Source: a virus
Virus record (IMG/VR): IMGVR_UViG_3300045988_114391
Span: 1-30,863 of that record
Strand: one strand, 5' to 3'
DNA length: 30,863 nt
Numbering within the stretch: position 1 is the stretch's first letter; every line of letters starts with the position of its first letter. Shown here piece by piece: positions 1-30,863 of the stretch. The notes beneath the pieces were generated by a model. It was not told the DNA's origin and ran no database searches. It was given only the letters and a program-made list of their open reading frames with translations. A program made the position numbers and the translations under genes.

Positions 1-99
1 AGTTTGTCCTTGGTTTTCCTTAGTCTCTTCTTCATCTCCCTTTCCGAAGAGTGTAGGGTACTCAGCGTTGATACTTGCAATAAGTTTACAAAAAAAAAC
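1..99. repeat. Exact 99-nt terminal duplication (1..99 = 30765..30863): circular-closure overlap or short direct terminal repeat
   Basis: Read directly: both ends read agtttgtccttgg...aagtttacaaaaaaaaac. A minus-strand ORF continues in frame across the junction. Confidence 0.9.
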
Positions 100-557
100 A
101 TTATGTCTGAAAATATATCTATTGTTAGATGAGTATTTAAGAATTCTGCCTCATCAATAGGGTCATAATCTTCTCCATACTTCTTTCCATTAGGTAGCAA
201 GAAACAAGCTGCTAGATTAGGCATAAAATCATCATACTGCTTATAAAAATTCTGAAAGTCAATATATTGACTGGCCGTCATCTTATTAACATTAAAAAAG
301 ACTTTATATTCTTTATTGCCAATATTATAAGTAGTTTCTGGGGTTTTTGGCTTATATGGAGTCTCTATAAATTTAAGATTATTTATAAACTCTTGTAGCT
401 TGTTTACTTCCATATTAGTTATATCTTCTATAGGTATATCACTAAGTACAGATACCATAGCTAAATTCATATCTAATTCATTTTCCCAGTCTTTTCGTAT
501 TATCTCAAACAGTCTTTTATAATGAGATAAATTCATTTCATTCCAATTCTTTATCAT
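1..557 (-). CDS. Hypothetical protein, 5-prime part. It starts at 557, runs off the window start and continues at the window end across the circular junction.
   Basis: ATG at 557..555 overlaps the terL stop as TAATG. 185 open codons (MIKNWNEMNLSHYKRLFEII...). No family recognised. Contains the T9 run at 90..98. Confidence 0.6.
   Translation of the reverse strand, partial: MIKNWNEMNLSHYKRLFEIIRKDWENELDMNLAMVSVLSDIPIEDITNMEVNKLQEFINNLKFIETPYKPKTPETTYNIGNKEYKVFFNVNKMTASQYIDFQNFYKQYDDFMPNLAACFLLPNGKKYGEDYDPIDEAEFLNTHLTIDIFSDIMFFFVNLLQVSTLSTLHSSEREMKKRLRKTKDK
90..98 (-). promoter_or_regulatory. T9 homopolymer (A9 on the + strand): candidate -1 frameshift site or homopolymer miscall
   Basis: mRNA reads atg ttt ttt ttt gta. 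The -1 frame (tgt aaa ctt...) stays open for about 105 further codons with five TGA codons and no TAA/TAG, ending at 30537. Frame 0 ends at TAG 30680. Confidence 0.45.
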
Positions 558-1840
558 TATTTAATTGCAATATTATAAGTTCCTTTATTTGTATTTAAAG
601 CATCATAAGCTAACATTAAAGATATACAAGTATCATCATTAAATCCAGATGGAGCATTATAACTAACATTTCCAGTCTTTGGATTATAACTGGCTTCATA
701 TAGTCTTAATTCATTTAATAGTTTATCATCCTTTAAAATACCAATCTTTTCGTTTTCTAATGCCGCTTGTAGCTTATTTACAATAGCTGCCTTAGACTTA
801 TTAGTAGTTAAAAACTTAACTATCCGTAATTTAGGATTCCTTTTTACAAGAATATCATAAAACACTGAACCTATTGAGTTTTGTTCGACTTGAACTATCT
901 TTATAAATCCCTGATACTCAGTGAATATATTTGTCAGTAAATCAACTTGTTCTGTTGGAGTTTTGTCGTTAAAATACTTTATAAAGACCATCTGCCCATT
1001 TTCATTTAAAGCTGTAATACAAGTATAGTCTTTACCAGAACCAGTAGCCCAGTCAACTCCAATATAGAGATTATGATATTCAGGTTTTTTATCAATTATA
1101 CAGTTAGCTATATTATTAAATAGGCAACCATCATCGTCTGCAAACTCTCCAAGATATTCAGTTCTAAATTTATTTTTGGAGGTTGTAAGGCGATACATTT
1201 CAAGTTTATCCTCACTTAACAGCATAGAAGTATCTTCTAATGCTCAATCAAAGGATTGATAATATTTACTAAAATTACCATCAAAGCCCTTTTTAAAGCA
1301 TTCATAAAAGAATCCTTCTCTAAACCTTGGAGTACTAATTATAAGTATTGGAGCATTCCATACATCAGCGATAGGTGTTAAAATTTCGTATACTTCATCT
1401 GATATATAAGCTGCTTCGTCAATTACTAATATTCCACTAACTGTAAATCCTCGTAATGAATCTTTTTGCTCAGCAGATTTAAATAGTATTTCACTCCCAT
1501 TAGTAAATTCAATCTCAAGCAAAGATTCATTCTTTTTCTTAATAATATCTGTGCCATCTAATGCCTTTACTAACTCTTTAAATATCTTTCTGGAGTTAGT
1601 AAGAGTTGGTTCAACAATACAGCTAATACTTCCAGGATAGTTAATTGAAAATCGTAATAGTTCATTTTCTGCCATAAAGGATTTACCACATTGTCTCTTT
1701 GCTTTTACAGTAAATATTTTTCCAGACCTATAAGAGTGCTCTAAAGCAGTATGTACCTTTAATTGATAGATAAATGGGCTATATCCTTTATATATTTTTG
1801 TCATTGTTAATTGGATCTCCAAATTTAAACTGGACTTCAT
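557..1840 (-). CDS. terL: Terminase large subunit (one in-frame TGA at 1244..1246; alternative start at 1804)
   Basis: Track ORFs 1244..1840 (Walker A QCGKS, Walker B LVIDEAAY) and 557..1225 (RNaseH-like nuclease, IGVDWATGSGKDYT, FNDDTCISL) are in one frame, separated only by TGA. 1284 nt = 428 codons. Confidence 0.9.
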
Positions 1841-2240
1841 TATTCTGAATAGCTACAATAGTCTCAGGTTGATTTAATCCAAACATACTATTTATAGTCT
1901 TAATAATCTCATTTGCAGCTCTAATATCTCCCTTACTAATAGCAGTATCCAGTAATGATTCCAATCTTGATAATTGTATATGTCTAAGATTTTTTATAAG
2001 GTTATCGTTCTTTTCAGCAATTATCTTATAAGCTTCTCCAATATATCTTGCAGCCGTTGATTGGCTTACATTATATTTACTTTGAAGTTCTTCACTTACT
2101 TTATTCCTTGACCATCCTTTGTTAAATAACCTTGCAGCATAAAGATATTTAGTCTTTACTTCGTCTATTTGTTCCTTTTCTACCTCTGCCTTTTTCGGTC
2201 TCCCTGTTTTCTTCGGCAGTTCCTGATTCTTTACTTTCAT
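1788..2240 (-). CDS. terS: Putative terminase small subunit (HTH protein directly upstream of terL)
   Basis: The segment GWSRNKVSEELQSKYNVSQSTAARYIGEAYK looks like an HTH. Position immediately 5-prime of terL. TAA stop. Confidence 0.55.
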   Translation of the reverse strand: MKVKNQELPKKTGRPKKAEVEKEQIDEVKTKYLYAARLFNKGWSRNKVSEELQSKYNVSQSTAARYIGEAYKIIAEKNDNLIKNLRHIQLSRLESLLDTAISKGDIRAANEIIKTINSMFGLNQPETIVAIQNNEVQFKFGDPINNDKNI

Positions 2241-2484
2241 TTTCCTTTAGTTTTTCTTGATATTCAAAATAGATTGGGGCAATCCTCTTTATAAGATTAA
2301 GTATACAAGTAGCACAAGCTACGCTCATTCTATATTCTTGTTCAATTAAACATTCATAAATCTCTTTAAGCTTAATTACATCCTGCTTTTGTACATTTCT
2401 GCAATAATTAGACTTAGTTGCAGTTACAAATCTATCTTCAAATCCTCTTAAATATTTAAACTGCTCTTCTGTTAATTGTTTCAT
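2149..2484 (-). CDS. Hypothetical protein
   Basis: Uninterrupted 111-codon ORF with a TAA stop. Its last 92 nt overlap the terS ORF in another frame. Confidence 0.5.
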   Translation of the reverse strand: MKQLTEEQFKYLRGFEDRFVTATKSNYCRNVQKQDVIKLKEIYECLIEQEYRMSVACATCILNLIKRIAPIYFEYQEKLKENESKESGTAEENRETEKGRGRKGTNRRSKD

Positions 2485-2573
2485 AATTAGCGCTTTTTAG
2501 TATAAGTAAATATAGAAATTAACTTTCCATTCTTGTAGTGATAAATAACTTCTGTTTCCATAAAATATAATTT

Positions 2574-2912
2574 TTAATTAATAAGTTTGTATATAACATC
2601 TATCAGCTTAGTAGATGCATCTTTTAATAATATCATAATATCTTTAATAATTGGAGTCATAAATGCTAATAGTGCAATATACCCAACCATTAAAATTGAA
2701 AATTGACTTGTAATAAGAATATATATTAATCCAATTCACCAAGTCATACATAAACTGCAATCTAAAGGTTTTAGTCTTCAATCTTCTTTATAAGGTATAC
2801 CTTTAAATAGTCTTTTTCAAATACTGTGTTTAAAACTATCCAAAGCCCCAGATAAATCAATTATAAAGACTATTATTACTGCTATTATAAATAATTCTAA
2901 CATAATCTTCAT
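2574..2912 (-). CDS. Small integral membrane protein (three in-frame TGA)
   Basis: Hand translation: MKIMLELFIIAVIIVFIIDLSG...PLDCSLCMTW[W]IGLIYILITSQFSILMVGYIALLAF... Hydrophobic segments. TGA at 2817, 2778 and 2736. TAA stop at 2574. Confidence 0.55.
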
Positions 2913-3382
2913 ACATAATTATAACCTGTTTTATATTTGCCATATAAACAAGCTCGAATTGAATAATCACACTTACCTAAAGCTTCCGCAGCTTCTTTAA
3001 TAGAATTATACTTTTTAACTAGAGTTCCGTTAAGATCATATTGAGCTACAGGTTTTGAAAGGTAAGAAGAAATCTTTTTATTTCTAGTTCCATAATTTGT
3101 ATTATATTTCCTAGTACATCATTCTAGATTTTCGACTCTATTGTCAGTCTTATCTTCATTAATATGATTTACTTCTGGTAAATTATATATATTTGGTATA
3201 AATGTTTCAGCTACTAATCTATGTATAGACTTCATTTTAACTTTTCCATTTTTTCATAGTCCTACTGCTAAGTAGTTATTTCTAATAGTAGGTTTAATAA
3301 ATTTATTTGTCCTTATACTATAAACTTCTCCGATATTATTTACTTTATAAAGACCTTCATAATTAGCTATATCCTTCCACAT
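2897..3382 (-). CDS. HNH homing endonuclease (NUMOD4-like N-terminus, HNH core, C-terminal DNA-binding tail); three in-frame TGA
   Basis: MWKDIANYEGLYKVNNIGEVYS..., HRLVAETFIPN, VNHINEDKTDNRVENLE[TGA]CTRKYNTNYGT. Invisible in the standard-code track. TAG stop at 2897. Confidence 0.85.
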
Positions 3383-3621
3383 ATTTTATTTCTAATATTA
3401 CTTATACACCTTGATATGGTAGTATGACTAATTCCCAATATTTTTCCCACTTCTCTATAACTGTGATATTCAGCATATAATATGATTACTGTCTTATCTG
3501 CCTTATTAAGCTCAAGTCATTTTGGATATATACTTAATAGTCTATCATCCATATTTGTAAACATACTATAGTCTATTTCATACTCAGTAAGTAAATCGTC
3601 AATATTAATCTTCCGTTTCAT
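3367..3621 (-). CDS. Sigma-70 region-4-like HTH protein (one in-frame TGA)
   Basis: LELNKADKTVIILYAEYHSYREVGKILGISHTTISRCISNIRNKI resembles the region 4.2 HTH of ECF sigma factors. TAG stop at 3367. Confidence 0.6.
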
Positions 3622-3913
3622 TTAATCAATCCTCCAATTCGTCATTTTGTTGTTCAAGTGGTTCTTTAACAATCTCATAATATTTCTTATAGGTATAGTA
3701 ATATCTACTTGTTTTACTAAACCAATAATTCTTAAATAATCTTGTAATCCAAAATTTCAATTCATTTTTGCTATCAAGCTGATTTAATTTTGGATTTGAA
3801 TACTCTAGTATTTCTACAAAAATCATTTGAACACAGTCATCATCTGCACCAAATTTTTGCTTAAGTTCCATAATAAATGGATAGTACTTTTCTACAATTT
3901 CGTTATTACTCAT
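3605..3913 (-). CDS. Sigma-70 region-2-like protein (track ORF 3626..3913 extended through TGA to TAA at 3605)
   Basis: EKYYPFIMELKQKFGADDDCVQMIFVEILEY...ELKFWITRLFKNYWFSKTSR resembles the ECF sigma region 2 pattern (..D.vQ..f..l.....W...i..N.....R). Its 3-prime end overlaps the start of the region-4-like gene. Confidence 0.5.
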
Positions 3914-4400
3914 ATGTTCACATATATCCTCCTGCTGTTTTTCGCTGCCCTTTAAGAACCTTTACAATATTTCTAGATTGTATATTTAGTTCTCTCTCAG
4001 CATCTATTGTTGAATCCCATCTTTTAATAACTATTCCATTTAGTAATTGCAGTATTGGTTTCTTATGACTATATCCAGCTCGCAGATTATGAGTTCCATA
4101 ATTATTATTATAATTATAAGTACACCATTCTAAATTACTTACGTTATTATTTGATTTATTTTCATCCTTATGATTTATACAAGGATAGTTATTCGGATTA
4201 GATATAAAAGTTTCAGCTACTAATCTATGTATATAACACTTCTTTTTCAAATTTTTATTATATAATGTTACTGTAAAGTACCCATTAGTTTTTACTTGAG
4301 GTTTTAACCTCTTTGGAACTGATGCTCTTAAACTTCATATTGAGCCATCAGTTCCAATTTGGTAGTTTTCAAAATTAAGTATTCTTTTATAGGCTATCAT
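3906..4400 (-). CDS. HNH homing endonuclease, paralogue of 2897..3382 (two in-frame TGA)
   Basis: MIAYKRILNFENYQIGTDGSI[TGA]SLRA..., HRLVAETFISN, INHKDENKSNNNVSNLEWCTYNYNNNYGT, C-terminus AGGYM[TGA]TYE then TAA. Confidence 0.85.
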
Positions 4401-4824
4401 TTGCTATATAATTACTAAATTCTGTATTTACATCTATCTTAATGGCTTTCTTTAAAGACAACTCTGTTTTTAATGAATAGCCATAAGTTCCTCCAAAATC
4501 TGTTGTAGAACAACCATATTTCATAGAATCCTTTATAAAGGCTTGTTTTATATCTTTAAATATATATACTCCATCATCAAATATTATTACTAATATAGAA
4601 TTATTTCTTGATAGCATATCAAATTTATCCCTATTAATAATAGTGGTTGGATATTTATTAGAATTGAATCTTCTTCTTTTAACTTCAATTATATAATCAA
4701 TTCCATTCCAATTAAATGTTCCATCATACCTGGAATAATCGTCTTTACATCATTCTATATCTATATTAAATTTCTCTTTAAATAGATTCTTTGTAAAGAC
4801 TAAACTTCTTATATCTGTTTTCAT
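4387..4824 (-). CDS. Hypothetical protein with a possible PD-(D/E)xK nuclease motif (one in-frame TGA)
   Basis: MKTDIRSLVFTKNLF...DIE[TGA]CKDDYSRYDGTFNWNGIDYIIEVKRRRF... joins track ORF 4387..4617. The D...EVK arrangement suggests a restriction-endonuclease-like fold. Confidence 0.5.
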
Positions 4825-5063
4825 TATTTTATATTATTAATTTTAAGTGTTAAATCACAATATTCTTCATATAAATTAGATACTTCTTCACTTGCTGGAT
4901 TAACCCACATTACTGAATCTAATTTATGTTTTAATTCTGCTCTTTCTAATCTTAATTCAAATGTTTTATGTTGTCTTTCCTGATAGACTTCATTTACTCT
5001 AAAACCTGCAACAATTGAAGATGCAATTAAAAGACCAACTAAAATTTTATTTATTTTTTTCAT
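4824..5063 (-). CDS. Small N-terminally anchored membrane protein; first gene of the leftward operon
   Basis: MKKINKILVGLLIASSIVAGF followed by a charged helical segment. TAA stop overlaps the next ATG as TAATG. Confidence 0.6.
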   Translation of the reverse strand: MKKINKILVGLLIASSIVAGFRVNEVYQERQHKTFELRLERAELKHKLDSVMWVNPASEEVSNLYEEYCDLTLKINNIK

Positions 5064-5107
5064 AATTTTATTATTTAATATGTTAATACTTGTTTATTAT
5101 TGTACTA

Positions 5108-5140
5108 CAAAGATAATACATTTTTTATTCAATTTCCAAA
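5108..5140 (-). promoter_or_regulatory. Bacteroidota-type promoter for the leftward operon
   Basis: On the minus strand: TTTG (5140..5137), a 21-nt spacer, then TATCTTTG (5115..5108), about 45 nt upstream of the ATG at 5063. Confidence 0.5.
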
Positions 5141-5216
5141 TTTTTTAGGTATTATTTTTATTATTTTCAAAAAAATATTACTATTTGTATTTTTATTATA
5201 TATTAATAAAAACAAT

Positions 5217-5702
5217 ATGATTTACGTAATTAAATTAACTAAAACGAATTTTATTAAAGTTGGTTACACTACTAATATAAGTGGCAGACTAACTGCTTAT
5301 AAAAATACTATTCCAAATGAGATGATAGAATTTTTTATAGCAAAAGAAGGAAATAGAGATGATGAAAATTATTATAGAGATAAATATAGAGCATATAAAA
5401 CTAAGAGTAATTCAGAATGGTTAAAACTTCCAGATGAATTAATTGTAGAGCTATTAGCAGATTTTAAGAGTGCAAATAATATAAAAATAAATAAACAAAG
5501 CAAAAAAGAATGATATAATGAGAATATAGATAAATTAGTAGAATTGTGCTTATCTGGAGTATCATTAAATAGAGCTGCAATTCAATTAAATGCACTAAAT
5601 TGAGACTGAATAAAATATGCTAATCAAAGATACGAAAAAGAGAATGGCAAAAAATTAACAAAACTTTGGGTAAGAAAAATCAAGAAAAGTTTTGCAGAAT
5701 AA
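5217..5702 (+). CDS. T5orf172 (GIY-YIG-related) domain protein with a C-terminal HTH-like extension (three in-frame TGA)
   Basis: MIYVIKLTKTNFIKVGYTTNISGRLTAYKN...SEWLKLPDELI matches the T5orf172 pattern. Reads through TGA at 5511, 5601 and 5607 to TAA at 5700..5702. TGG is also used (KLWV). Confidence 0.75.
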
Positions 5703-5721
5703 AAATTTATTATTATATTTG
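5691..5721 (+). promoter_or_regulatory. Bacteroidota-type promoter P1
   Basis: TTTG (5691..5694), a 19-nt spacer, then TATATTTG (5714..5721). Shares the core ATTATATTTG with P2 and P3. Confidence 0.5.
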
Positions 5722-5769
5722 TAGTGTAAAGAAAAAAATAATTTTTTATTAAAAATAATACCCGAATTA

Positions 5770-5801
5770 TTTGGAAATTTAATTTTTATGTATTATATTT
5801 G
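5770..5801 (+). promoter_or_regulatory. Bacteroidota-type promoter P2
   Basis: TTTG (5770..5773), a 20-nt spacer, then TATATTTG (5794..5801). Confidence 0.5.
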
Positions 5802-5829
5802 CAGTATGAAACTAAAACTAATAATTCTA

Positions 5830-5855
5830 GGCAGGTGAAAGTCCTGCCACTTTTT
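5830..5855 (+). terminator. Intrinsic terminator or attenuator
   Basis: ggcagg-tgaaagt-cctgcc hairpin followed by actttttg. Confidence 0.65.
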
Positions 5856-5864
5856 GAATCTTAC

Positions 5865-5914
5865 TGTCAAGTTTTTTACTCACTTTTAGTAGTAAGAAAA
5901 TAAAAATATTGACA
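5865..5914 (+). repeat. Intergenic 50-bp element, copy S1
   Basis: TGTCAAGTTTTTTACTCAC-ttttagtag-TAAGAAAATAAAAATA-TTGACA. The 18-nt head is identical in S1, S2 and S3, and the ends are inverted (TGTCAA/TTGACA). Confidence 0.8.
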
Positions 5915-5944
5915 AAAACTTTAACTATTTAAATTATTAAAATT

Positions 5945-7666
5945 ATGAAAACATATTTAAACAATTTGATTAATGAGTTGCCAACTAACTGCTTATTTGA
6001 TAAAGGAAAAGTTGGATGTGGAGGAACTTCAATGGCAATTGAATGTAATAAGCCTTATGTTATTTGTGTTCCATTTACTAGCTTAGTTGAGAATAAACTT
6101 CAACAATATCCAAATGAAAGACGTACTGAGAAGATATTTGGAGTTTATGCTGGAGTTACTATTAAAGAGATTAAAGATTACGTAGATAGTGTTAAATGTC
6201 CTAAAATTATTGTTACATATAACTCACTTCCGAAGGTTATTTCTGCAGTTAATACTAAAGAATACAGTTTATTAGTAGATGAATATCATATACTATTTAA
6301 TCAGTATAGCTTTAGAAAGGATGCTATTAAACCTGTTTTAGAGAACTATAAATTATTTAAAGATTTTACATTTATGACTGCAACTCCTCTTGAAGAAGAA
6401 TTCGTATTAGATGAATTAAAAGATTTAGAATTAGTAAAACAAGAATGGGATGATGTTATTGAAACTAAGGTACAAGCCGTTAAATGTAAGAATGTTGAAG
6501 CTTCAACTATTAAATTAATTAATGCTGTTCTTAATAATCAAGTTGAAGGTAATGTTTATATATTTGTAAATTCTGTGGACTTTATAAAGAATCTTATTCA
6601 GAAAGCTAAACTTACAGAAGAGAATACCAGAGTTATATATTCCAAAAACAATAAAACCAAATTATCAATTCATAATTCTACAGTATTAGATGAACCTAAG
6701 AAAATAAATTTATTAACTTCTACAGTATTTGAAGGTTCTGATATTTATGATGAAAATGGAAGAATTGTAGTAGTAAGTGATGCTCAAAAAGCACAAACTC
6801 TTCTTGACATCTCAACTTCAATCCAACAGATTGCTGGCAGAATTAGAAATAGTAAATATTTAAACTGGATAACTCATCTTTACTCAGCAACAAGATATGC
6901 AGATATTAGTTATGAAGACTTTAAAAAGAAGAATATCCAGAATATTGAGGAAACTAAGATTGCTGTAGATGCTTACAATGCAATGCCTGAAGTTGCAAGA
7001 AAGAAACTTAAAGAATTTACATCTGATACTTATATCCAAGTAAATGATGATTTTACATTTACATTTGATCCAAATATGGCTAAGGTAGATATTTTTAACT
7101 TTAAAGTGACAAGAGGTTTATATTCTATTAGAACGAATCTTAATAAAGAATATATAAAGAATGGATTTAAAAAAGTAATAGAATGTGAAGACAACTCTAT
7201 TAAGATTGATTTTGAATCTGATAATAAACCATTTAAAGAACTAATTAAAGAAGTTAGAACAGAATGGGAAAATAAATTTAAACTGAATACTCCACTCTTA
7301 AATGATGCTATTATTAAATATCCTTGGTTACCAGAAGCTATTAGTAAATTAGGATTCGAAAAGATGGCAAGCTTGAAATATTGCATTTCGGATATTAAAG
7401 ATGCTCTATTAAAGAAATCAAATAAAAGTGCAGATAATAAAGCAGCTAAGAAGTTAAATCAATCAATTACTCTTGGAATGTGGTATTCTAACGCTGATAT
7501 TAAAAAGTTTGTTAAAGAAGCTTATGAAATTAGTGATATTACTATTACTCCAAAAGCAACAGAAATTGATAAATATTATGAAGTTAAAAAATGCCAGAAA
7601 AGAGTAAATGGTAAACAAACTGAAGGTTATGTAATTATTAATAAAAAATTTGTATTTAATAAATAA
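5945..7666 (+). CDS. SF2 (DEAD/DEAH-like) helicase; probable replication/early protein
   Basis: Walker-A-like KGKVGCGGTS, LLVDEYH (motif II), FMTATP (motif III), QQIAGRIRN (motif VI). 573 codons with no TGA. TAA stop. Confidence 0.8.
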   Translation: MKTYLNNLINELPTNCLFDKGKVGCGGTSMAIECNKPYVICVPFTSLVENKLQQYPNERRTEKIFGVYAGVTIKEIKDYVDSVKCPKIIVTYNSLPKVISAVNTKEYSLLVDEYHILFNQYSFRKDAIKPVLENYKLFKDFTFMTATPLEEEFVLDELKDLELVKQEWDDVIETKVQAVKCKNVEASTIKLINAVLNNQVEGNVYIFVNSVDFIKNLIQKAKLTEENTRVIYSKNNKTKLSIHNSTVLDEPKKINLLTSTVFEGSDIYDENGRIVVVSDAQKAQTLLDISTSIQQIAGRIRNSKYLNWITHLYSATRYADISYEDFKKKNIQNIEETKIAVDAYNAMPEVARKKLKEFTSDTYIQVNDDFTFTFDPNMAKVDIFNFKVTRGLYSIRTNLNKEYIKNGFKKVIECEDNSIKIDFESDNKPFKELIKEVRTEWENKFKLNTPLLNDAIIKYPWLPEAISKLGFEKMASLKYCISDIKDALLKKSNKSADNKAAKKLNQSITLGMWYSNADIKKFVKEAYEISDITITPKATEIDKYYEVKKCQKRVNGKQTEGYVIINKKFVFNK

Positions 7667-7680
7667 AAATATTATATTTG
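7649..7680 (+). promoter_or_regulatory. Bacteroidota-type promoter P3
   Basis: TTTG (7649..7652), a 20-nt spacer, then TATATTTG (7673..7680). The ATG at 7685 follows 4 nt later. Confidence 0.5.
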
Positions 7681-7684
7681 TGAT

Positions 7685-7846
7685 ATGGAAAGTGATATTA
7701 AAGAAACAATTAAACAAACAGAAGAGTATATTAAAGAATTGGATAAATGAATGCTCGAATGTAAAGAGGCTACTAAAAGATTTGGTGATATTATAGATAA
7801 AGTATTAAAAGATAAAGATTATATGTTTATTTCTAAATTTGATTAA
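7685..7846 (+). CDS. Small hypothetical protein (one in-frame TGA at 7748)
   Basis: MESDIKETIKQTEEYIKELDK[TGA]MLECKEATKRFGDIIDKVLKDKDYMFISKFD, TAA stop. Confidence 0.45.
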
Positions 7847-7848
7847 TT

Positions 7849-7989
7849 ATGGATGATTATTTATTTAAAAAGCTTGAAGAACTAGAATATAGAATAGTTC
7901 AACTAGAAAACCAGCATAGAGGTTTAGTTTGGGAAGAAGTAAAAGAAACACCCAAACCAGAGATTCCTAACGCAACATATACTGATTAA
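7849..7989 (+). CDS. Small hypothetical protein
   Basis: MDDYLFKKLEELEYRIVQLENQHRGLVWEEVKETPKPEIPNATYTD. Tightly packed after the previous gene. TAA stop. Confidence 0.45.
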   Translation: MDDYLFKKLEELEYRIVQLENQHRGLVWEEVKETPKPEIPNATYTD

Positions 7990-7990
7990 T

Positions 7991-8134
7991 ATGAAATACC
8001 AAACCTATAAAGTATGTATAAATGGAGTGTATTATGTATATGTAATACCAGAAAATAGTAAGTTTTTAGTAGACTTACAAACAGGAGATTTAATACCTAA
8101 AGAAGATGATAAATTATTTGAAATGATGGAATAA
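7991..8134 (+). CDS. Small hypothetical protein
   Basis: MKYQTYKVCINGVYYVYVIPENSKFLVDLQTGDLIPKEDDKLFEMME, TAA stop, followed by a terminator. Confidence 0.45.
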   Translation: MKYQTYKVCINGVYYVYVIPENSKFLVDLQTGDLIPKEDDKLFEMME

Positions 8135-8141
8135 ATGAAAA

Positions 8142-9357: not shown

Positions 9358-9358
9358 A

Positions 9359-21474: not shown

Positions 21475-21477
21475 TAG

Positions 21478-21540: not shown

Positions 21541-21541
21541 T

Positions 21542-24301: not shown

Positions 24302-27300
24302 TAGATTGTAATATTTTTAACAGTATCTTCTGTTAGTGTTAAATTCTCTGTATATTTAACTGTTCCTGTAGGTCCATCAGTCACTTCAAATTTAAACTGA
24401 ACACCTTTTTGAGCATATATTCTATAATTTCCATTATCCTGCATATAAGCCACATTCAAGAAGTTATCGTTTTCTGTAAGTATCTGATTTACCCCAGTTG
24501 GTATAGTGCCACTTGGAGTTTCTAATTTGCCTGTAATAAGAACAGCTTTATTTGGGTCTGGAGTTTGAGTAAACATACATTTAGGACCATCTACGCCTCC
24601 TTGTTTATAAAGACTAAAGTAGAAACTCCTTTGATTATATTTAGTATTCTCATTATAAGTAACTGTTAATTCTGTTTCTCCAGGTTGCCCAGATTCAGGT
24701 GTAATGCTTACAATTTCATTTGGACTATATCATCCTAATTCTCAAGGAATATTAGAAGTAACTGTAATCTTTTTAGTCCCAGCTTTATAATCTACAACTG
24801 GATCTGAATCATCAAATGATATATATTCACCTAGATTTTGAACTCCAGCTAAATAACTATTAATATCTTGAACTTTAATAAATTCGCATCTAACTGTAGA
24901 ATCTGAATTAATATCATAAGCATCAATCTTATTAAGTATCCAGTAAGAATCTTCAAAATAATAGAACTGTCTAAGTAAATCATACTTAACATCTAAATCA
25001 TCCAATCTTACAAAGCAGGCAACTTTTTTAGTATTTACATCAAATTGATCATTATAAAATTCACTCCAGAATCTACTATATAAAGTAGATTGTTCTAAAT
25101 AACTAACTTTATCAATGTATATTTCTCTTGGAACCCCAAAATCTCAAGATGAAGATATAAAATTACTAGAAATAGTGTATCTTATAAATTGTGGTAATAT
25201 GTTTCTTCTAATAGCTATTTTTTGTCCTGCAGAATTATTTTCACTATTAGTATAGATATAACAAGGTTCTCCATCATTAAGAACTGACATTTCTGTAACA
25301 TCATCAGTAATCCAATAATAAATAGGATTACCATTTATATCTTTCATATTAACATCATCATTATAAAATAATAAAGTACTTTTTATCTCTTCAAGACTTT
25401 GTTCATTATTATCTAATGTATAAAAACAAGTTTTTGCAAATATATCATTTCCAGGAACATCCCACCATTCTGTAGTCTTACCTTGGTCTATAAAATTAGC
25501 TCCATATAAATCCTGATCATTAGTCTTTACTTCTGTAGAAGTTCTATTAAATAAACTATATGTAATATTATCATTCATAAATGCGGGTACATAAGTATTT
25601 CCAGAATTAAAGAAATTTCTAAAATACTTATCTGCATCTCTTGCTGATACTACATTTTGAAATATATTTCCAGAATATAAATCAGTATTATCACTATTAA
25701 AATTATATCCAGTGTTTAATCTTTGCTGACCATAATCTATATCATATTGTCTATCATATTTCTTGGCATAATATGTTTCTGGAGTTTCTAATGACATAGT
25801 ATATCACTTCTTATCAAATAATATTGGATTTACATTGAAGTCTTTAGAATAATCAATCCTTTTACTCCAATCAAAGATTATATTCTTAAAGAAATTATTT
25901 CTAGTATATATTCTAATTGTTTTACTATCAATATCTTTTGTAAAATACAATCCAAATAGTTTTGCATAACTTAATAAGTAATCAACAGGAGATTGTTCTG
26001 TCTTTAATAATTTCTGCTTAGTAATTAAAGCATCGGAAGTAACTGTTGAGGGCCAAGAAGCTTTTAATGTATACTGATCTTCATCATATAAAAATTCTGA
26101 CCATCCAGCAACTCTATTTGCTGTGACATTATTAGGATGCATATTATCTGATTGTCATACTGCATCTTGATTGTATAAACTCTCAGTTCTTCTTGCAATT
26201 TGTATATTCACTAAAATCTTATTAACTTTAGGCATATCTTTTACAGTAAATCTGAAAGTATTAGTATTATTATCACTTTTAAAATAATACCTATTTCCAC
26301 TATCTTTTACAAAGTGACCAAAAATAGCTTCTACAGGTGCATCAGTTAATGGATAATAATTAAACCAAGTTCCAGGTCCTGATTGAACTTGAGTGTTTAT
26401 CTTATTTGTAAAGTTATATAAAGGAGAGTATGCTATAGGTCTACTAGGAGATGAAGTATCTTCAGCATCATATATCAATATCTGTGCTGTTACTGATGTT
26501 CTGTAAGGATCATTCCTATAATCTGTATTTCCAGCTCTTCCGTTCCTTACATAAGATAAATATAAATCATTACCTGCTGAAACATTTGCATTATAAAATA
26601 GCTGAAAATCAACATTAATATTAACAAGAGTATTAGCAGGAGTTGCAGATAAATCAATTACTTGGCCTTCCCCAGGAACTATTACATCACTCCCTGTAAC
26701 ACTAAATCTACCCCAGTTTACTGAAGTAGTTGTTCCTCCAGGTTTTAATCCACACCAAAACAAATCATTATATTTAGTAAGTTTAGCATTCTCTGTAATA
26801 TTATCTGATTCTTCATCTTCAGTAGATCCTAATAAAGGTAATGCAACAAACGCTTTATTTCAATATGGATTTGAATAATTAAAGAAACTATCATCAAATA
26901 TCACATCATATCCAGAATTCTCTTTTCTACATATAGTTTCTATTAACTTACTTAATTTTAATGCTGGCCTTTGCATATAACTTCTAAGATCTCTCATCTC
27001 CCATTCTGTATATGCTCTATTTAATTTAGCTAATCCATATCCATTATAAGGTGTGTATGTAGTTCCTGAATCGGTCTTACTAGTAGGAAATAAATTATCT
27101 CCATTAGTATTTATTAAACAAGTTTCATTATCAAAGTTTTCATATAAACCGTTATATGCAGGAATAAATGTTAAAAAATCATAAATTTGACTTCCGTCAT
27201 TTACTTTACTCCAATTAAAACAAGTATTTACAAAATCTTTATTAATGTGGAAATTCATTTCAGTATCGGTAGGAAGTACATTACCATCCTCATCAGTTAC

Positions 27301-27741
27301 AAAGTATTGTAAATCAGCTAGAGTTCTAATAGTGCCATCTTCTTTATATTTAAGTCCATAAAAGAAATCTCCCAATCCTCCATATAAAGTAATATTATAA
27401 GTAATAACTGCTTGCTTTATAGAGATGCTATTTAACTGCATATATCCTGATTCAACTAAATATCCATTATTATAGATTCCAAAGTCAACTCTTTTTGAAG
27501 GATCAAAATATACGCCAGAGAAATTACCTTCTTTTATATGGAGAAATCTATCTAACTTATAAATCTCTCCAAAAATCTTATTATTGTTTTTGTCTCCTGG
27601 AATGCTTATAGTCTTACTGAATGAATTTTTTACTATTGTTGGATTCTGAAAATCTTCTACAGTATAAGTCATTGGTAATGATATGCCTTCAGAACAATGT
27701 ACTTCTTTTCCTGCAATAAATAATTTAATATTCTTTCTCAT
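24301..27741 (-). CDS. Large tail/baseplate-type structural protein, 1146 aa (six in-frame TGA) with a C-terminal Ig/BACON-like module
   Basis: Six track ORFs (26860..27741, 26155..26763, 25804..26142, 25144..25797, 24742..25005, 24301..24576) are in one frame and are linked only by TGA. Segment ITPESGQPGETELTVTYNENT...RSFYFSL is Ig-like. The TAA stop overlaps the next ATG. Confidence 0.65.
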
Positions 27742-27743
27742 AA

Positions 27744-29924
27744 TTATTTACGATAAGTATCTTGAGAAGTTTCTACATTAATTGTATAGTAGAACTTATT
27801 CTTACCTTGATTAGTATAAGTTTTATATTCACAATTTGTATCTGTAATCAATACTGGAGTGATAGTATTATCTTTAAGATTATGCAAATATACTTTGGTA
27901 CTCTCAATTAGATTAAACATCTTAGAAGCTTGAATATCATTTAAATAACCAGTATAAAGAACCCAGCTTGAAGTTATAGTATTCAAATACTTATTTCTTG
28001 CAAACTCTTGTGATGTATTTAATACTTTGCGAGTATATGTTTCAGATTTAATTTCATCAGTCTTTCTAACATTACCCTCAACAAGTAATGAATCTCATCC
28101 TCCTGCTGAATTAGTATAATATAATACATAATCTTTACCTGTGGTATCTATATCATATCTAATCTGTCTATCACTAATATTTCCGTCTTCTACAAATCCT
28201 ACTATTAAATAGCTCCCACAAGGCCATAGTTTATTGCTTAAATCTTCTGTATATGTATATCCATTAATTCCAGAATTTAAACTAATATCTATAGCAGTTG
28301 ATGTTCCATCTATATAAAAGAATCTATTAACAACTCCCGTTCCAGTTGGTAAAATTCAACTTGCTACTAAATATTGTCTGGGATCAACTAAACCAGTAAT
28401 AGGATCACTTAACATAGTACCTTTAGTCAAATCTCTATCTTTATAACTCCAATCATTGAAAAAAGTAATTGGTTTTTCATTTCCACTAGATGTTATCAAA
28501 GTAAATGGTTTCAAATATTCTGGAGATATTATAGTTTTAGAAGTATTAAATATAATACCATTAGATAGATAATTCTCAGCAACATTATTTAATAAAAACT
28601 CTACTCTATCAGTTTCTGGATATTTATAAGCTTTTCCAGCATAGACCATATCCCCTGCATAATCTAAATGATATTCAATAAAATCAGAACTGATAATTTC
28701 TTCCCAAACATAATCTTTCCAAATAGGAGATATATCAGATTTAACAGATTGTGTAATATTAATAGATAAATTAATAATACTTGAACTATTCTTTATAACA
28801 GATACTCCAATAGTTGCTTGTCTAGAAGATAAACCTGAATTTTCTGCAATGTTCAAACTAATAGTTGCTACACCTTGAGGATTCACAGTTATCTTCTGTC
28901 CACTAATCCAACCTACAGGAATGCTAAATACAACATCATCTAAGTTGTTTGAGCCTGTACCAGTTATATTTAAGGTAGATGCAGTTCAACTTACTTCATA
29001 ATTAGTATTAGGAATCACTAAAGATGTTGCAGCTTGTTTAATTGGAACTGTAGCTTCAAGAGTATAACCTCCAGAAGTTGTTGCAGTAACCATTGCACTA
29101 AACTCTAAATTATTAGTAGTTTTATTCTCTGGAACAGTTAATACAAAATAGTTATCAACAATATCCTTTTTAATATTACTAGCTTGAGGGCAGGTAACAT
29201 TAAATGAGGTAATTGTTTCTTCTGCTTTAGTTGTACTTAAATGGAATTCTTCAGTAACAAAAGCAGATGCTCCATAAGTTCCAGATGAAGGAGTTACTAC
29301 TAACTTTAAATCTTCTGGAGTATTGCTTTTTTCAATTTTAAAGCCGTAACTATAACTAATAAATTTATTAGTATCATAATAAGCCCCTAATTGGATAGTT
29401 ACAGTTAAATCAGTATTTCATTGAGTATTAGCTCTTACTGTAACTTTAAACTTAATAGAGCAAGAATCTCAATCCAGAACTTCCATATTAACTAAAGCTG
29501 TAGCATTAACAACTGCTGCATCTCATTTAATAATATCTGATCTATTTAATATATACTCTACTGTATATTCTCCACCAGTATTTGGTACTTTAATGGTGCC
29601 ATTAGCAGGATAATATCCAGGAGCTTTACTATGTAAATTAATTGGTAAATCTTCCTCTAATAAAGCAGTAGTAATGCCTCTAGGATAAAAATGAAATACA
29701 GTAGAAGAATCAGTAGTTATTGTTGTAGGAGATAAAAATTGTATTGTACATCCTTCTTTACTTGGATCCTGTATAGTTACATTTAAAGGCCCTTCTTCAG
29801 TATAATCATCTCCCCAAGTCCAATAATCATATTCTCCAGTAATTCCCCATCCAGGATTATTCCATTTAACAGGAAAACTCCTTGATGCATTATATATTCC
29901 TAATTTACTTGGTATAAATGCCAT
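27744..29924 (-). CDS. Large fibre/receptor-binding-type protein, 726 aa (six in-frame TGA) with a BACON-like domain
   Basis: Track ORFs 29523..29924, 28356..28886 and 27744..27986 are in one frame. Gaps were hand-translated and have TGA at 29523, 29469, 29418, 28986, 28356 and 28095. YEVS[W]TAS...VGWISGQKITVNPQGVATISLNIAENSGLSSRQATIGVSV fits the BACON pattern. Confidence 0.65.
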
Positions 29925-29926: not shown

Positions 29927-30415
29927 TTAAAAGTTTTTAAATAAATAATAATCTACTTGTCCTTGTAAGTCTTTAGTTATAGCATCATCAAGAAGTTCCA
30001 TATAGTTGTTCTCTATATATTCTATAGTATTAGCAAGTGGATGTTTTCCTTGAGTTCCTTGAAGATGTATCTTTCTTCCAATTAAATATGCAAGTTGATC
30101 TACAGTAGGTAACTTGCCATTATAAGGTCTTGGAATTACTGGCTTAGTTTTAATCCAACTCTTTATATCAGATAATGGAGGAAATTTACCAGCAGCTCTG
30201 CCTTCTTCAACATATTCTCAATAATCTAATAAGCTAAAATTAACCTCATATTCTCCATCTTGAGTCTCAACTACATAGTTTAAACTATTACCTAATGCTC
30301 CAGTGTCATCAGATCTGGTTTTAACTAATTCCTGTCTATAAAGAGAAATTATAAGATCTCCTCACTTCCTTAATAGCTCACTTAAATTTGAGAACTTTAA
30401 TTCTTGAATATTCAT
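29927..30415 (-). CDS. HK97 gp10-like head-tail/tail-completion protein candidate (two in-frame TGA)
   Basis: MNIQELKFSNLSELLRK[W]GDLIISLYRQELV...LLDY[W]EYVEEGRAAGKFPP...; the Y.EYVE.G motif resembles the gp10 family. Absent from the standard-code track. Confidence 0.5.
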
Positions 30416-30458
30416 TTTTGTTAAAATATATTATTTTATATATTAGTAGCTAATGAAA

Positions 30459-30479
30459 ATAGGGAGGTTTACTCCCTAT
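30459..30479. terminator. Intrinsic terminator hairpin (T-rich on both sides)
   Basis: atagggag-gttta-ctccctat followed by tttta (+ strand) or tttcatt (- strand). Confidence 0.7.
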
Positions 30480-30485
30480 TTTATA

Positions 30486-30535
30486 TGTAACTTTTTTATA
30501 TTATCTTAGTACCAAATATGAGTAAAAAGGTTACA
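30486..30535 (-). repeat. Intergenic 50-bp element, diverged inverted copy S4
   Basis: The minus strand reads TGTAACCTTTTTACTCA-tatttggtac-TAAGATAATATAAAAAA-GTTACA. It has the same block order and length as S1-S3 and abuts the stop codon at 30537. Confidence 0.6.
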
Positions 30536-30536
30536 G

Positions 30537-30863
30537 TTAATGTTTTCTTTTTCATTCTTCAATCTGTCTATTTTCTTCATTAGCTTTATCTATAACATAG
30601 CATATAATGTTAAGAAACTCTTTAATCTGCATATCATATATCTGATGTCAATTAAATCTGGTAACTTCACTTACCTTATCTATTCAGATAATTCAGCTTC
30701 ATTTTTGAGTAAAAGGATTAATCGTCTCGTCTGTATTAAGCTCTTCAGAAGTTTCCTCCTTTCCAGTTTGTCCTTGGTTTTCCTTAGTCTCTTCTTCATC
30801 TCCCTTTCCGAAGAGTGTAGGGTACTCAGCGTTGATACTTGCAATAAGTTTACAAAAAAAAAC
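30537..30863 (-). CDS. 3-prime part of the junction-spanning gene, read in the -1 frame after the T9 run (five in-frame TGA)
   Basis: ...ASINAEYPTLFGKGDEEETKENQGQTGKEETSEELNTDETINPFTQK[W]S[W]II[W]IDKVSEVTRFN[W]HQIYDMQIKEFLNIICYVIDKANEENRQIEE[W]KRKH, TAA at 30537. About 105 codons free of TAA/TAG in very AT-rich DNA. Confidence 0.5.
30765..30863. repeat. Second copy of the 99-nt terminal duplication
   Basis: Identical to 1..99. Confidence 0.9.

Follow-up and report, generated by a model that had tools for sequence, protein, structure and literature searches.

TGA is read as a sense codon for tryptophan (genetic code 4) in the genome of this phage, a reading to which we assign a probability of about 0.97. 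The window, meaning the whole 30,863-bp stretch analyzed, carries the same 99 bases at both ends (1-99 and 30765-30863, an exact match) and is therefore circular, with 30,764 bp once the overlap is counted a single time. The same genome is present in four other assemblies (30,820 to 30,884 bp) that have different start points and are 99.99 to 100% identical to the window. It is the complete genome of an uncultured tailed phage of the human gut. TGA recoding in phages is already known, as the sequence-only reading had stated (10.1101/2021.08.26.457843; PMC11210395). Less ordinary are the finding of no tRNA in the phage or in about 100 loci of its relatives, the family-wide avoidance of TGA in head genes and helicase, and a host that is probably a standard-code Bacteroidota bacterium.

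TGA as a sense codon

The genome holds 37 genes, including one across the circular junction, and all of them end as the sequence-only reading had described, 33 in TAA, 4 in TAG, and none in TGA. Most lie in a minus-strand string about 27.7 kb long, on which a plus-strand string converges. When only TAA and TAG are taken as stops, flanking pieces that share a frame merge into open reading frames (ORFs) of up to 1146 codons, and each of the 22 tca positions listed earlier, 1244, 3626, 3918, 8427, 8807, 9413, 10940, 12756, 13407, 13689, 14145, 16211, 21941, 22415, 23306, 24742, 25144, 25804, 26155, 26860, 28356, and 29523, proved to be the lowest base of a minus-strand in-frame TGA. In total, 49 in-frame TGAs are spread across 21 of the 37 genes, with one further in-frame TGA, outside the 49, in a doubtful ORF (21418-21630). 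The previous count of about 54 TGAs in 22 genes was slightly high; it had also missed two plus-strand genes, 5217-5702 (three TGAs) and 7685-7846 (one).

Chance is excluded by the stop codons within the genes: the other two frames contain 1215 TAA and 522 TAG, and the coding frame contains neither. It is likewise excluded by ORF coverage and by the gains of a greedy ORF call. The call under code 11 gave a density of 73.0%, 51 ORFs with a median of 104 aa, and 11 strand switches, and that under code 4 gave 95.1%, 38 ORFs with a median of 169 aa, and 3 strand switches. The share of the window in ORFs of at least 120 aa was 0.75 for code 11, 0.89 for code 4, and 0.76 for code 15, so that the sharp rise expected under code 4 was observed and no rise was seen under code 15. 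Sequencing error as the source of the TGAs is ruled out by the four 99.99 to 100% identical assemblies and by the TGAs being kept across dozens of distinct relatives.

The TGA-bearing genes include those for terminase, portal, tape measure, tail, fibre, and M15 endolysin, together with membrane proteins adjoining the endolysin, sigma/HTH-like proteins, and five homing-endonuclease-type genes. The features are as follows.

1-99, no strand: terminal direct repeat, an assembler overlap
557-1840, minus: TerL, 427 aa; Terminase_6N at 49-243, Terminase_6C at 260-393; one TGA at 1244-1246 (codon 199), upstream of the nuclease domain
2574-2912, minus: membrane protein, 112 aa, holin-like candidate; TGA codons 32, 45, 59
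2897-3382, minus: HNH homing endonuclease (Pfam NUMOD4, HNH_3, NUMOD1); TGA codons 43, 88, 158
3367-3621, minus: sigma-70 region 4/HTH-like protein, 84 aa (HTH_50, Sigma70_r4); TGA codon 35, ahead of the HTH
3605-3913, minus: protein of 102 aa, overlapping gene 3367-3621 by 17 nt; TGA codon 96
3906-4400, minus: second HNH homing endonuclease; TGA codons 22, 161
4387-4824, minus: protein of 145 aa; TGA codon 25
4824-5063, minus: 79-aa protein, hydrophobic segment at the N terminus; first gene behind the minus-strand promoter; TGA-free
5108-5140, minus: Bacteroidota-type promoter match (TTTG, 17-23 nt, TAnnTTTG), heading the minus-strand gene string
5217-5702, plus: T5orf172/MUG113-domain protein, 161 aa; TGAs at 5511-5513, 5601-5603, 5607-5609
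5691-5801, plus: Bacteroidota-type promoter matches, one at 5691-5721 and one at 5770-5801, ahead of the helicase gene
5945-7666, plus: SF2 helicase-like protein, 573 aa (weak Helicase_C_2 match, motifs read directly); no TGA, 5 TGG
7685-7846, plus: small protein, 53 aa; TGA at 7748-7750
8138-8167, no strand: bidirectional intrinsic terminator between the converging gene strings; 13-bp stem, T runs on both strands
8175-8744, minus: GIY-YIG-type homing endonuclease with NUMOD1 tail; TGA codons 106, 125, 186 (GFK-W-RY)
8744-9196, minus: peptidase M15 endolysin, 150 aa (Peptidase_M15_3); one TGA at 8807-8809 (codon 130)
9359-10015, minus: protein of 218 aa with transmembrane segment, adjoining the endolysin; TGA codons 14, 201
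10442-11125, minus: DUF6712 protein, head module; one TGA, codon 62, at a position of low conservation
11125-12213, minus: portal protein (Phage_portal); one TGA, codon 39
12576-13241, minus: GIY-YIG/NUMOD3 homing endonuclease; TGA codons 162, 217
13389-14408, minus: fibre-like protein, 339 aa; TGA codons 88, 240, 260, 334 (SKN-W-TL)
15305-16420, minus: paralogous fibre-like protein, 371 aa; TGA codon 70
16422-18545, minus: tail fibre, 707 aa, with Phage_tail_C tip; no TGA here, TGAs in relatives' versions
18637-21346, minus: head module, TGA-free, of higher G+C; 174-aa protein and the next three genes
19202-20119, minus: major capsid protein, TGA-free
20141-20746, minus: scaffold-like protein, TGA-free
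20753-21346, minus: S78-type prohead protease, TGA-free
21542-24301, minus: tape measure protein, 919 aa (phrog_3336); TGA codons 332, 490, 629, 787
24301-27741, minus: tail protein, 1146 aa; TGA codons 294, 529, 646, 866, 1000, 1004
27744-29924, minus: tail protein, 726 aa; TGA codons 134, 152, 169, 313, 523, 610
29927-30415, minus: tail-completion/Neck1-like protein, 162 aa (phrog_5); TGA codons 18, 66

The amino acid at TGA positions

The columns in which the TGAs of the window fall are Trp or aromatic, in agreement with the earlier assignment to Trp. In code-4 relatives these columns hold TGA (607), TGG (227), TAT/TAC/TTT/TTC (63), and GGA (4); in standard-code relatives, W accounts for 103 of the 263 aligned positions, F for 65, Y for 32, G for 8, and C for 2. 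The low counts of GGA and G reject a Gly reading. Among standard-code relatives, TGG occupies column 59 of the 2574-2912 protein in 10 of 10, column 66 of the 29927-30415 protein in 16 of 18, and portal column 39 in 10, with Tyr/Phe there in 8. Relatives carry TGA or TGG at codon 35 of gene 3367-3621 (25 and 7, respectively), codon 96 of gene 3605-3913 (17 and 8), and codon 25 of gene 4387-4824 (27 and 2).

The clearest single column is codon 130 of the endolysin, whose H-x6-D motif aligns to 1LBU. Trp is found there in 80 of 80 full-length homologues, and two residues on, after the TGA as had been proposed for the last M15 His, His132 is invariant (80/80). All 17 family loci have TGA at this codon, and a Bacteroidales chromosome that uses the standard code has TGG; in databases, 40 homologues are entered in truncated form, ending exactly at codon 130.

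Profile and structure-based alignments cross the TGAs, as anticipated. Alignment of the HNH gene 2897-3382 with I-HmuI (PDB 1U3E) crosses two of them and pairs codon 88 with Trp and codon 43 with Phe. The HNH_3 profile also runs across codon 88, which sits inside the HNH domain, a small correction to the proposal that the TGAs set this catalytic domain apart from its tail. The phrog_3336 match (tape measure residues 231-846) runs across all four TGAs, and Terminase_6N runs across TerL codon 199, a column that is F in 66 of 120 homologues and W in another 53. TerL is indeed split by a single TGA, which lies within the Terminase_6N match and not exactly between the ATPase and nuclease halves. 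The HNH, fibre, and endonuclease-tail strings compared previously were found exactly as quoted: the NLEW motif of gene 3906-4400 has TGG where its HNH paralogue has TGA, and fibre 15305-16420 has TGG at the position matching SKN-W-TL of fibre 13389-14408.

Host and decoding

The host is probably a standard-code Bacteroidota bacterium, given the few Shine-Dalgarno sites, the Bacteroidota-type promoters, and a TAG-recoded relative that resides as a prophage in the genome of a Bacteroidota using the standard code. Of 34 genes, 4 have a Shine-Dalgarno-like motif ahead of them, versus 46% in Bacillota controls. All four matches to TTTG...TAnnTTTG are intergenic and face genes; family-wide, this motif is about 80-fold denser in noncoding than in coding DNA, part of which is due to the motif being AT-rich and noncoding DNA being AT-richer (G+C of 0.20 versus 0.30). 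A helicase homologue with 45% identity lies in the TAG-recoded prophage, which adjoins an integrase and tRNA-Thr; the bacterium carrying this prophage has the standard code and is a match to Lentimicrobium (Bacteroidota). The closest chromosomal endolysin homologue is in a Bacteroidales-type locus, and relatives by TerL occur as prophages on long contigs of Bacteroides. Labels from metagenome-assembled genomes divide the closest TerL relatives between Bacteroidia (48%) and Acutalibacteraceae (51%). A phage that encodes a peptidoglycan peptidase implies a host with a cell wall. Searches returned neither a CRISPR spacer match to the phage nor an integrated copy of the phage family, and among cultured relatives none exceeds 28% identity in TerL.

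With a standard-code host, the phage would be recoded relative to that host, as are the gut phages with alternative codes described by Borges et al. One point fits a host that reads UGA natively just as well: were the cell to follow the standard code strictly, the phage could produce hardly any protein apart from the helicase and a few small ones. The Bacteroidota-type features point to the standard-code host.

ARAGORN found no tRNA in this genome, its relaxed search gave only noise, and Rfam had no match to a tRNA at E values up to 1. The 34 and 49 family loci also contain no tRNAs; the tool that screened them detected a Sup-CTA tRNA in a TAG-recoded relative. Pfam and PHROGs searches revealed no release-factor or tRNA synthetase domain, and neither the phage nor any relative carries such a gene. 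This argues that UGA is read as Trp by a factor supplied in trans. Candidates are a UGA-reading host tRNA, a weakening of release factor 2, a phage protein that went unrecognised, or co-infection by an opal-recoded phage. A Sup-TCA tRNA is present in only 15 to 35% of code-4 phages (10.1101/2021.08.26.457843; PMC11210395).

Uneven use of TGA among genes

The recoding had been described as genome-wide. It does reach 21 of the 37 genes, and this wording overstates its extent, since 16 are TGA-free and the genes for capsid, scaffold, protease, the 174-aa head protein, mostly portal, and helicase avoid TGA throughout the family. Family-wide, the head genes have 47 TGA and 587 TGG; TGA/TGG counts are 1/92 for the 174-aa protein, 0/136 for capsid, 0/23 for scaffold, 6/59 for protease, 18/111 for the DUF6712 protein, and 19/137 for portal. 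The helicase has 1 TGA and 109 TGG, and the 4824-5063 protein has 0 and 18 across relatives. The remaining genes have 1080 TGA and 1415 TGG, which places TGA in 43% of Trp codons. The 2574-2912 protein has the highest TGA density of the genome (25.8 TGA per 1000 codons family-wide). The difference between head and other genes is also detected in the window alone (Fisher p = 0.009). Base composition does not account for the difference: use of the other A/G-ending codon pairs varies little from one group of genes to another, and the GC3 of the helicase equals that of the TGA-using genes.

This codon distribution suggests that TGA is probably decoded less efficiently than TGG. In that case TGA would serve as a brake or gate on late proteins that are low-copy and dangerous, namely the endolysin, the membrane proteins, the nucleases, and parts of the tail, and would be selected against in proteins required in hundreds of copies. 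The explanation as a whole, in which a complete phage with TGA as Trp infects a standard-code Bacteroidota host, is decoded in trans, and uses TGA as a brake, is the one we lean toward, somewhat less firmly than the host assignment by itself. A clean division into early standard and late recoded genes is countered by TGAs just downstream of host-type promoters, at codon 25 of gene 4387-4824, in the T5orf172 gene, and in the 53-aa gene.

Genome organization and coding density

The window has a G+C content of 29.8%, and its minus strand carries nearly all long reading frames. Its first 99 bases match its last 99 exactly, which shows that the contig closes on itself as a circle of 30,764 bp. The capsid protein was found exactly on four further contigs of 30,820 to 30,884 bp, which begin at different points of the circle, are 99.99 to 100% identical to the window and may include re-assemblies of one sample.

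The virion and packaging genes encode the terminase, portal, S78-type protease, scaffold-like protein, capsid, tape measure, two large tail proteins and three fibre-like proteins. Lysis is represented by an M15 endolysin with adjoining membrane proteins, and regulation and replication by two small sigma/HTH-like proteins and an SF2 helicase-like protein. No integrase was found among the annotated genes of the window. The layout and the mobile genes are as follows.

5108-5140 to 8138-8167, minus strand: gene string of about 27.7 kb, running from a promoter-like site (5108-5140) round the circle to a terminator (8138-8167)
5217-8134, plus strand: short gene string converging on the same terminator, which is bidirectional
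2897-3382, 3906-4400, 5217-5702, 8175-8744 and 12576-13241: five homing-endonuclease-type genes (two HNH, two GIY-YIG, one T5orf172)

Several smaller features were observed along the circle. The region of the head module (18000-21400) has a G+C content of 0.33 to 0.37, against 0.23 to 0.30 in the rest of the genome. The G+C minimum lies around 4000-7000, where the sign of the GC skew flips, and this fits a replication origin or promoter region. On the minus strand at 3367-3913, a 102-aa and an 84-aa protein overlap by 17 nt and each contains a TGA; the 84-aa protein matches Sigma70_r4 and HTH_50, and the pair may be a split phage sigma factor or a single frameshift-joined gene. On the plus strand at 5808-5856, between a promoter-like site (5770-5801) and the helicase start, a G+C-rich hairpin (5830-5848) is followed by a run of T; it may act as an attenuator or mark where a small RNA of about 50 nt ends. 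Promoters of the E. coli sigma-70 type are below chance in the window (20 matches versus 33 expected).

With only TAA and TAG as stops, the standard-code ORF pieces fuse into 37 genes and one doubtful ORF (21418-21630, minus strand). The latter is a low-complexity frame of 70 codons that overlaps the tape-measure gene at its 3' end; it is unlikely to be a real gene and was left out of the gene and TGA counts. The sequence-only reading had proposed that TGA is read as Trp genome-wide, from about 54 in-frame TGAs in 22 genes. This number was slightly high, the count being 49 in-frame TGAs in 21 genes, of which four lie in two plus-strand genes that it did not list (5217-5702 and 7685-7846). Each of the 22 positions that it named is the lowest base of an in-frame minus-strand TGA. 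Its statement that genes end in TAA or TAG holds for all 37, including the one that spans the junction of the circle: 33 end in TAA, 4 in TAG and none in TGA. No in-frame TAA or TAG occurs inside these genes, while the other two frames contain 1215 TAA and 522 TAG.

Genes were re-called, as that reading had suggested, under code 4 (TGA as Trp) and code 11 (standard), and also under code 15 (TAG as sense). Code 4 restored the coding density and code 15 did not.

Table. Greedy ORF calls on the window under three genetic codes
Code; coding density; ORFs; median length; strand switches
11; 73.0%; 51; 104 aa; 11
4; 95.1%; 38; 169 aa; 3
15; 77.2%; 58; 97 aa; 15

This gain matches the published figures for code-4 gut phages, in which density rises from 78.0% to 90.4% on recoding (PMC11210395). 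Some annotations of this genome in ENA are already in code 4 (genes of 726, 1116 and 919 aa); that of JGI, made in code 11, is fragmented. The default code cuts half of the genes of a common gut phage into fragments; TerL and helicase clusters hold 100 to 300 member sequences in public assemblies, and stool samples such as SAMEA1906455 are rich in the phage. Annotation, host prediction and clustering of this family, the window phage and its close code-4 relatives, therefore need code 4.

The only point in favor of a standard code, with the TGAs as true stops in pseudogenes, as sequencing or assembly errors, or as sites of programmed read-through or selenocysteine insertion, is that TGA is normally a stop, and we give this explanation almost no weight. 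Five assemblies carry the identical sequence, and dozens of distinct genomes keep the TGAs or have TGG instead; this conservation in relatives, together with the near-identical assemblies, excludes sequencing errors. Termination at TGA would truncate the terminase, the portal, the tape measure and, ahead of its catalytic His, the endolysin. As anticipated from the domain layout, homology runs across the TGAs in conserved essential genes, where Pfam, PHROG and PDB alignments span them. Stops of the other two kinds number 0 in frame versus 1737 off frame. Leaky read-through as known is ruled out by the presence of up to six TGAs per gene, and no read-through-type signal was found in the base following the window's 49 TGAs (A 24, G 15, T 8, C 2), which is near the all-codon background. 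Columns of Cys/selenocysteine type are absent, with 2 such residues at 263 aligned positions of standard-code relatives.

Residue encoded by TGA

The residue inserted at TGA was assessed by aligning the window proteins to 34 related IMG/VR loci, with a TerL identity of 75 to 100% in 32 of them and two outliers at 50% and 25%. Opposite the window TGAs, these loci carry TGA 607 times, TGG 227 times, a Tyr or Phe codon (TAT/TAC/TTT/TTC) 63 times and GGA 4 times. The same columns in standard-code relatives, which are more distant and in many cases high in G+C, hold W 103, F 65, Y 32, G 8 and C 2 among the 263 aligned positions.

Individual proteins showed the same preference. Of 120 TerL homologues, 66 have F and 53 have W in column 199, and the I-HmuI structure (1U3E) has Trp at HNH codon 88 and Phe at codon 43. 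Codon 130 of the endolysin is W in 80 of 80 full-length homologues, two residues ahead of the invariant His132, and 40 more of the 120 listed homologues end exactly at codon 130 because they were called under code 11. A Bacteroidales chromosomal endolysin homologue has TGG at this codon, and its neighbor genes end in TGA. The assignment of TGA to Trp made from the sequence is therefore borne out, the TGA columns being Trp/aromatic and not Gly.

Reading TGA as glycine (code 25) would follow the one other reassignment of this codon known from bacteria, that of Absconditabacteria, Gracilibacteria and the phages infecting them, and would give an equal gain in coding density. It is nonetheless vanishingly improbable here, given that Gly codons occupy 4 of about 930 aligned positions in the close relatives, that standard-code relatives have 8 Gly in 263 positions against 200 aromatic residues, that relatives interchange TGA and TGG freely, and that Trp is invariant in the endolysin columns and present in I-HmuI. 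Phages with code 25 resemble the window phage in that TGA is a sense codon, and they need no code-switch machinery because the host shares their code (PMC10746230); they differ in that TGA is Gly in them, whereas it falls in Trp/aromatic columns in the window. The column counts exclude the Gly, the Cys/selenocysteine and the read-through readings.

Uneven use of TGA among genes

TGA makes up 38% of the Trp codons of the window, and its use differs strongly between genes. The head module comprises a 174-aa protein, the major capsid protein, the scaffold-like protein and the S78-type prohead protease; the portal and a DUF6712 protein also belong to the head.

Table. Trp codons in the window and in the code-4 family (family figures are counts over related sequences, not independent events)
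Genes; TGA; TGG
Head module, window; 2; 17
Other genes, window; 47; 63
Head genes, family; 47; 587
Capsid, family; 0; 136
174-aa head protein, family; 1; 92
Scaffold-like protein, family; 0; 23
Helicase, family; 1; 109
All other genes, family; 1080; 1415

The difference between head and other genes is significant in the window (Fisher p = 0.009). The window helicase is free of TGA, as are a 79-aa, a 46-aa and a 47-aa protein and the head genes apart from the two codons tabulated, whereas lysis and tail genes are recoded and several promoter-proximal genes contain TGAs. Across the code-4 family, TGA reaches 57 to 74% in fibre, endonuclease, membrane and sigma-like genes. Base composition does not account for this pattern. 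The G-ending share of the other A/G codon pairs is 0.10 to 0.48 in head genes versus 0.12 to 0.31 elsewhere, and the GC3 of the helicase (0.154) equals that of TGA-using genes. Moreover, within the TGA-using genes TGA (45%) is rarer than the A-ending codons of comparable pairs (69 to 88%).

Since TGA and TGG are frequently swapped in the tail genes of relatives, the near-total lack of TGA in the capsid genes looks selected. One explanation would be that UGA is decoded less well than UGG; genes for low-copy and hazardous proteins may then tolerate it, or exploit it as a brake, and genes whose products are required by the hundred would be purged of it. That high-copy head proteins exclude TGA throughout the family is a concrete, testable indication that reading UGA carries a cost and may help to control how much of a protein is made, or when. 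The single TGA of the endolysin, just ahead of the catalytic His, is fixed in 17 of 17 family loci, and this fits the lysis-gating idea of Borges et al.

The homing-endonuclease-type genes, whose presence differs between relatives, have a TGA share of Trp codons of 0.6 to 0.7, among the highest.

Decoder, host and relation to known recoded phages

No tRNA was detected in the window by ARAGORN or, at E up to 1, by Rfam, and none among the 34 + 49 family loci scanned. The same tRNA tool did detect a CTA-anticodon suppressor in a TAG-recoded distant relative (L148, 37% TerL identity, binned in a 'Bacillales' MAG), at 5409-5496, which it labelled tRNA-Pyl. The search for a hidden tRNA covered ARAGORN at its default, at relaxed thresholds of 90% and 80%, with introns allowed and in tmRNA mode (-m), and the relaxed, intron and tmRNA runs on the window returned low-scoring hits inside genes only. 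A 'tRNA-SeC(tca)' at 10905-11002 was rejected: its anticodon is simply an in-frame TGA read on the opposite strand, its fold is no more stable than those of shuffled sequence (z = −0.41), and Rfam gave no match for it with the E threshold raised to 10. An Rfam sraA match at 8130-8230 (E = 0.26) was also set aside, being weak and overlapping the terminator. Among the window proteins, no Pfam or PHROGs match to a release factor, tRNA synthetase, deaminase or tRNA-modifying enzyme was found. A suppressor tRNA(UCA), RF1 and TrpRS were thus not found in the window, nor were tRNAs in the family loci. A Sup-TCA tRNA is present in 35% (10.1101/2021.08.26.457843) or 15% (PMC11210395) of code-4 phages, and 4 of 5 opal-recoded Zeta crAss-like genomes are without it (PMC12386605). 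With a suppressor in only 15 to 35% of such phages, a phage-encoded decoder does not define the class.

Code-4 recoded gut phages have been described since 2014 and were surveyed in 2021 to 2024, so that the recoding of TGA to Trp is itself already known. The window phage is a member of this class, with every testable defining feature present and the non-defining suppressor tRNA absent. It has no close cultured or GenBank relative: a nucleotide search against GenBank phages gave no match for the window, and, among cultured phages, TerL matches reach no more than 28% (Thermus phages), so that cultured relatives give no host clue.

Indirect host signs agree on Bacteroidota. Shine-Dalgarno-like motifs lie upstream of 4 of 34 genes, versus 46% in two Bacillota controls, and such sites are missing throughout the lineage. 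The Bacteroides promoter consensus consists of TTTG, 17 to 23 nt and TAnnTTTG; all four of its matches in the window are intergenic and face genes. Over 16 family sequences, non-coding DNA contains the pattern at about 80 times the density of coding DNA, and the lower G+C of non-coding DNA explains only part of this. The nearest chromosomal endolysin homologue lies among Mfa-type fimbrillin, HU-HIG and contractile-injection genes, and TerL relatives with 38% identity were found on long Bacteroides contigs. On contig L255, a TAG-recoded prophage (5652-21740) with a helicase homologue 45% identical to that of the window lies beside an integrase (Phage_int_SAM_5) and a tRNA-Thr. In the late region of this prophage, ORFs cover 0.54 of the sequence under code 11 and 0.95 under code 15; the host contig follows the standard code and encodes a glutamine synthetase that groups with Lentimicrobium (Bacteroidota). 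The wider lineage includes standard-code (L074), TAG-recoded (L148, L149, L255) and TGA-recoded (L037, L073, L133) members. The peptidoglycan peptidase implies a walled host and so speaks against a Mollicute, which would have no wall. TerL relatives carry mixed MAG labels, which were rejected as host evidence; an 'Acutalibacteraceae' contig (L137) is probably mis-binned because it has no Shine-Dalgarno sites. A standard-code Bacteroidota host is therefore probable.

A more far-reaching reading, with a probability of roughly 0.3, would place the window phage in a prevalent family of small, tRNA-less gut phages with, probably, a standard-code Bacteroidota host, in which 40 to 70% of the Trp codons of tail, lysis and nuclease genes are UGA, the decoder would not be a phage suppressor tRNA and UGA would act as a copy-number throttle. 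Candidate decoders would be a host tRNA-Trp able to read UGA, a release factor 2 activity lost through phage action, or a suppressor taken from a co-infecting opal-recoded crAss-like phage; a throttle of this kind would keep UGA out of the head proteins.

Alternatively, the host itself may be a gut bacterium that reads UGA as Trp, as Mycoplasma and Spiroplasma natively do, so that the phage would share the host code and need no machinery. The lack of a tRNA, release factor or synthetase in the window and in the family members, the location of TGAs near host-type promoters as well as in late genes, and the absence of genes ending in TGA would all follow, and in one assembly a relative is joined to a second, unrelated phage, which is crAss-like and densely recoded at TGA. 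We nevertheless consider this rather unlikely, since the M15 peptidase implies a wall, unlike Mollicutes, and since the missing Shine-Dalgarno sites, the promoters and the relatives point to Bacteroidota; to our knowledge, no gut member of that phylum uses code 4. TGA also accounts for 38% of Trp codons, versus 52 to 90% for the A-ending codons of other A/G pairs, it is present in 57% of genes, and its near-absence from the head genes and helicase is unexpected for an ordinary, well-served codon. Phages with code 4 in GenBank do favor such hosts, 22 of 27 infecting Mycoplasma or Spiroplasma (PMC11210395).

The crAss-like join concerns contig 175865 (148,631 bp) and scaffold_39 (193,455 bp), in which a relative of the window phage is joined to a crAss-like genome inside a fibre gene. 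The two are 100% identical across the junction flanks and so represent one human-gut sample, not independent cases; the sample is LIJU14 (SAMEA2338623), and in contig 175865 the junction lies at about 118.9 kb. They were rejected as prophage-in-host contigs, the flanks being crAss-like phage and not bacterium. The partner phage is about 168 kb long, the record IMGVR_UViG_3300029720_000001 having 168,085 bp, with a G+C content of 0.32 to 0.33, and is crAss-like by TerL (IMG/VR contigs of 85 to 168 kb: L220, L226-L254); a nucleotide search against GenBank phages gave no match for it. Its ORF coverage is 0.57 to 0.62 under code 11 versus 0.94 to 0.95 under code 4, and its 1084-aa fibre contains 25 TGA versus 8 TGG (L234 16231-19116; L127 6225-9119). 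Over its last 51 aa, the junction fibre shares 94% identity with the tip of the window fibre at 16422-18545. The shorter contig stops once it has gone about one turn round the small genome, a pattern that assembly through a repeat present in both phages would produce. Probably, the assembler took a chimeric path along DNA common to the two, which would still point to a common host; a true shared stretch would mean that both phages have exchanged DNA recently and hence have the same host.

This partner could in principle serve as a helper, the small phage hitch-hiking on the code of a co-infecting opal-recoded crAss-like phage that would supply the suppressor tRNA or code-switch factors. The join in one human-gut sample, the dense TGA recoding of the partner and the repeat domain common to both fibres (38 to 40% identity) would suit such an arrangement. 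It appears improbable, however: both long contigs come from the same sample, the end of the shorter one after about one turn is the signature of an assembly path through a repeat, and no tRNA was found in the roughly 31 kb examined of the 168-kb partner. A Sup-TCA tRNA is also absent from 4 of 5 published opal-recoded Zeta genomes (PMC12386605). Moreover, the small phage encodes its own full virion.

Close known systems include the code-4 gut phages of Borges et al. (10.1101/2021.08.26.457843), among them the small clades Garnet, Amethyst and Topaz (22 to 34 kb); the same mix of standard, TAG- and TGA-recoded members is described for the clades of that study. Gut origin, small genome, TGAs aligned with Trp, recoded structural and lysis genes, lineages with codes 11, 15 and 4, a probably standard-code Bacteroidota host and an often undetected suppressor tRNA are common to both. 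The window phage differs in having no integrase and no tRNA in about 100 family loci, in its unevenly recoded structural genes, with the head TGA-free and the tail, lysis and nuclease genes recoded, and in its TGAs near host-type promoters. Opal-recoded Zeta crAss-like phages (PMC12386605; Yutin et al. 2021, PMC7886860) are likewise from the human gut, low in G+C (30 to 33%), TGA-to-Trp recoded in signature genes and mostly without Sup-TCA (4 of 5), and one such phage was co-assembled with a window relative. Their virion and replication genes are unrelated, however, their genomes have 155 to 190 kb and 18 to 28 tRNAs versus 30.8 kb and none, and TGA makes up about 70 to 75% of Trp codons in the genes seen versus 38%. 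Phages of Mycoplasma and Spiroplasma (PMC11210395) also read TGA as Trp without a phage suppressor tRNA, but their hosts are wall-less, whereas the window phage has a peptidoglycan peptidase with an intact metal-binding motif, Bacteroidota-like expression signals and TGA as a non-dominant Trp codon (38%; 0% in capsid genes). The window phage offers a clean, complete and small test case for how suppressor-less code-4 phages, the majority of those described, get UGA read. What adds to its interest is that a whole family lacks a decoder, that head genes exclude TGA and that a link with an opal-recoded crAss-like phage is possible.

Repeated elements were also observed in the fibre genes. Two fibre-like paralogues on the minus strand (13389-14408 and 15305-16420) have the C-terminal motif EEQKSL..SKNW in common, and the 707-aa fibre (16422-18545, minus strand) contains repeated 'LVSGTNIKTINGxSxLGEGN' units that are found in the fibres of the crAss-like partner phage too.
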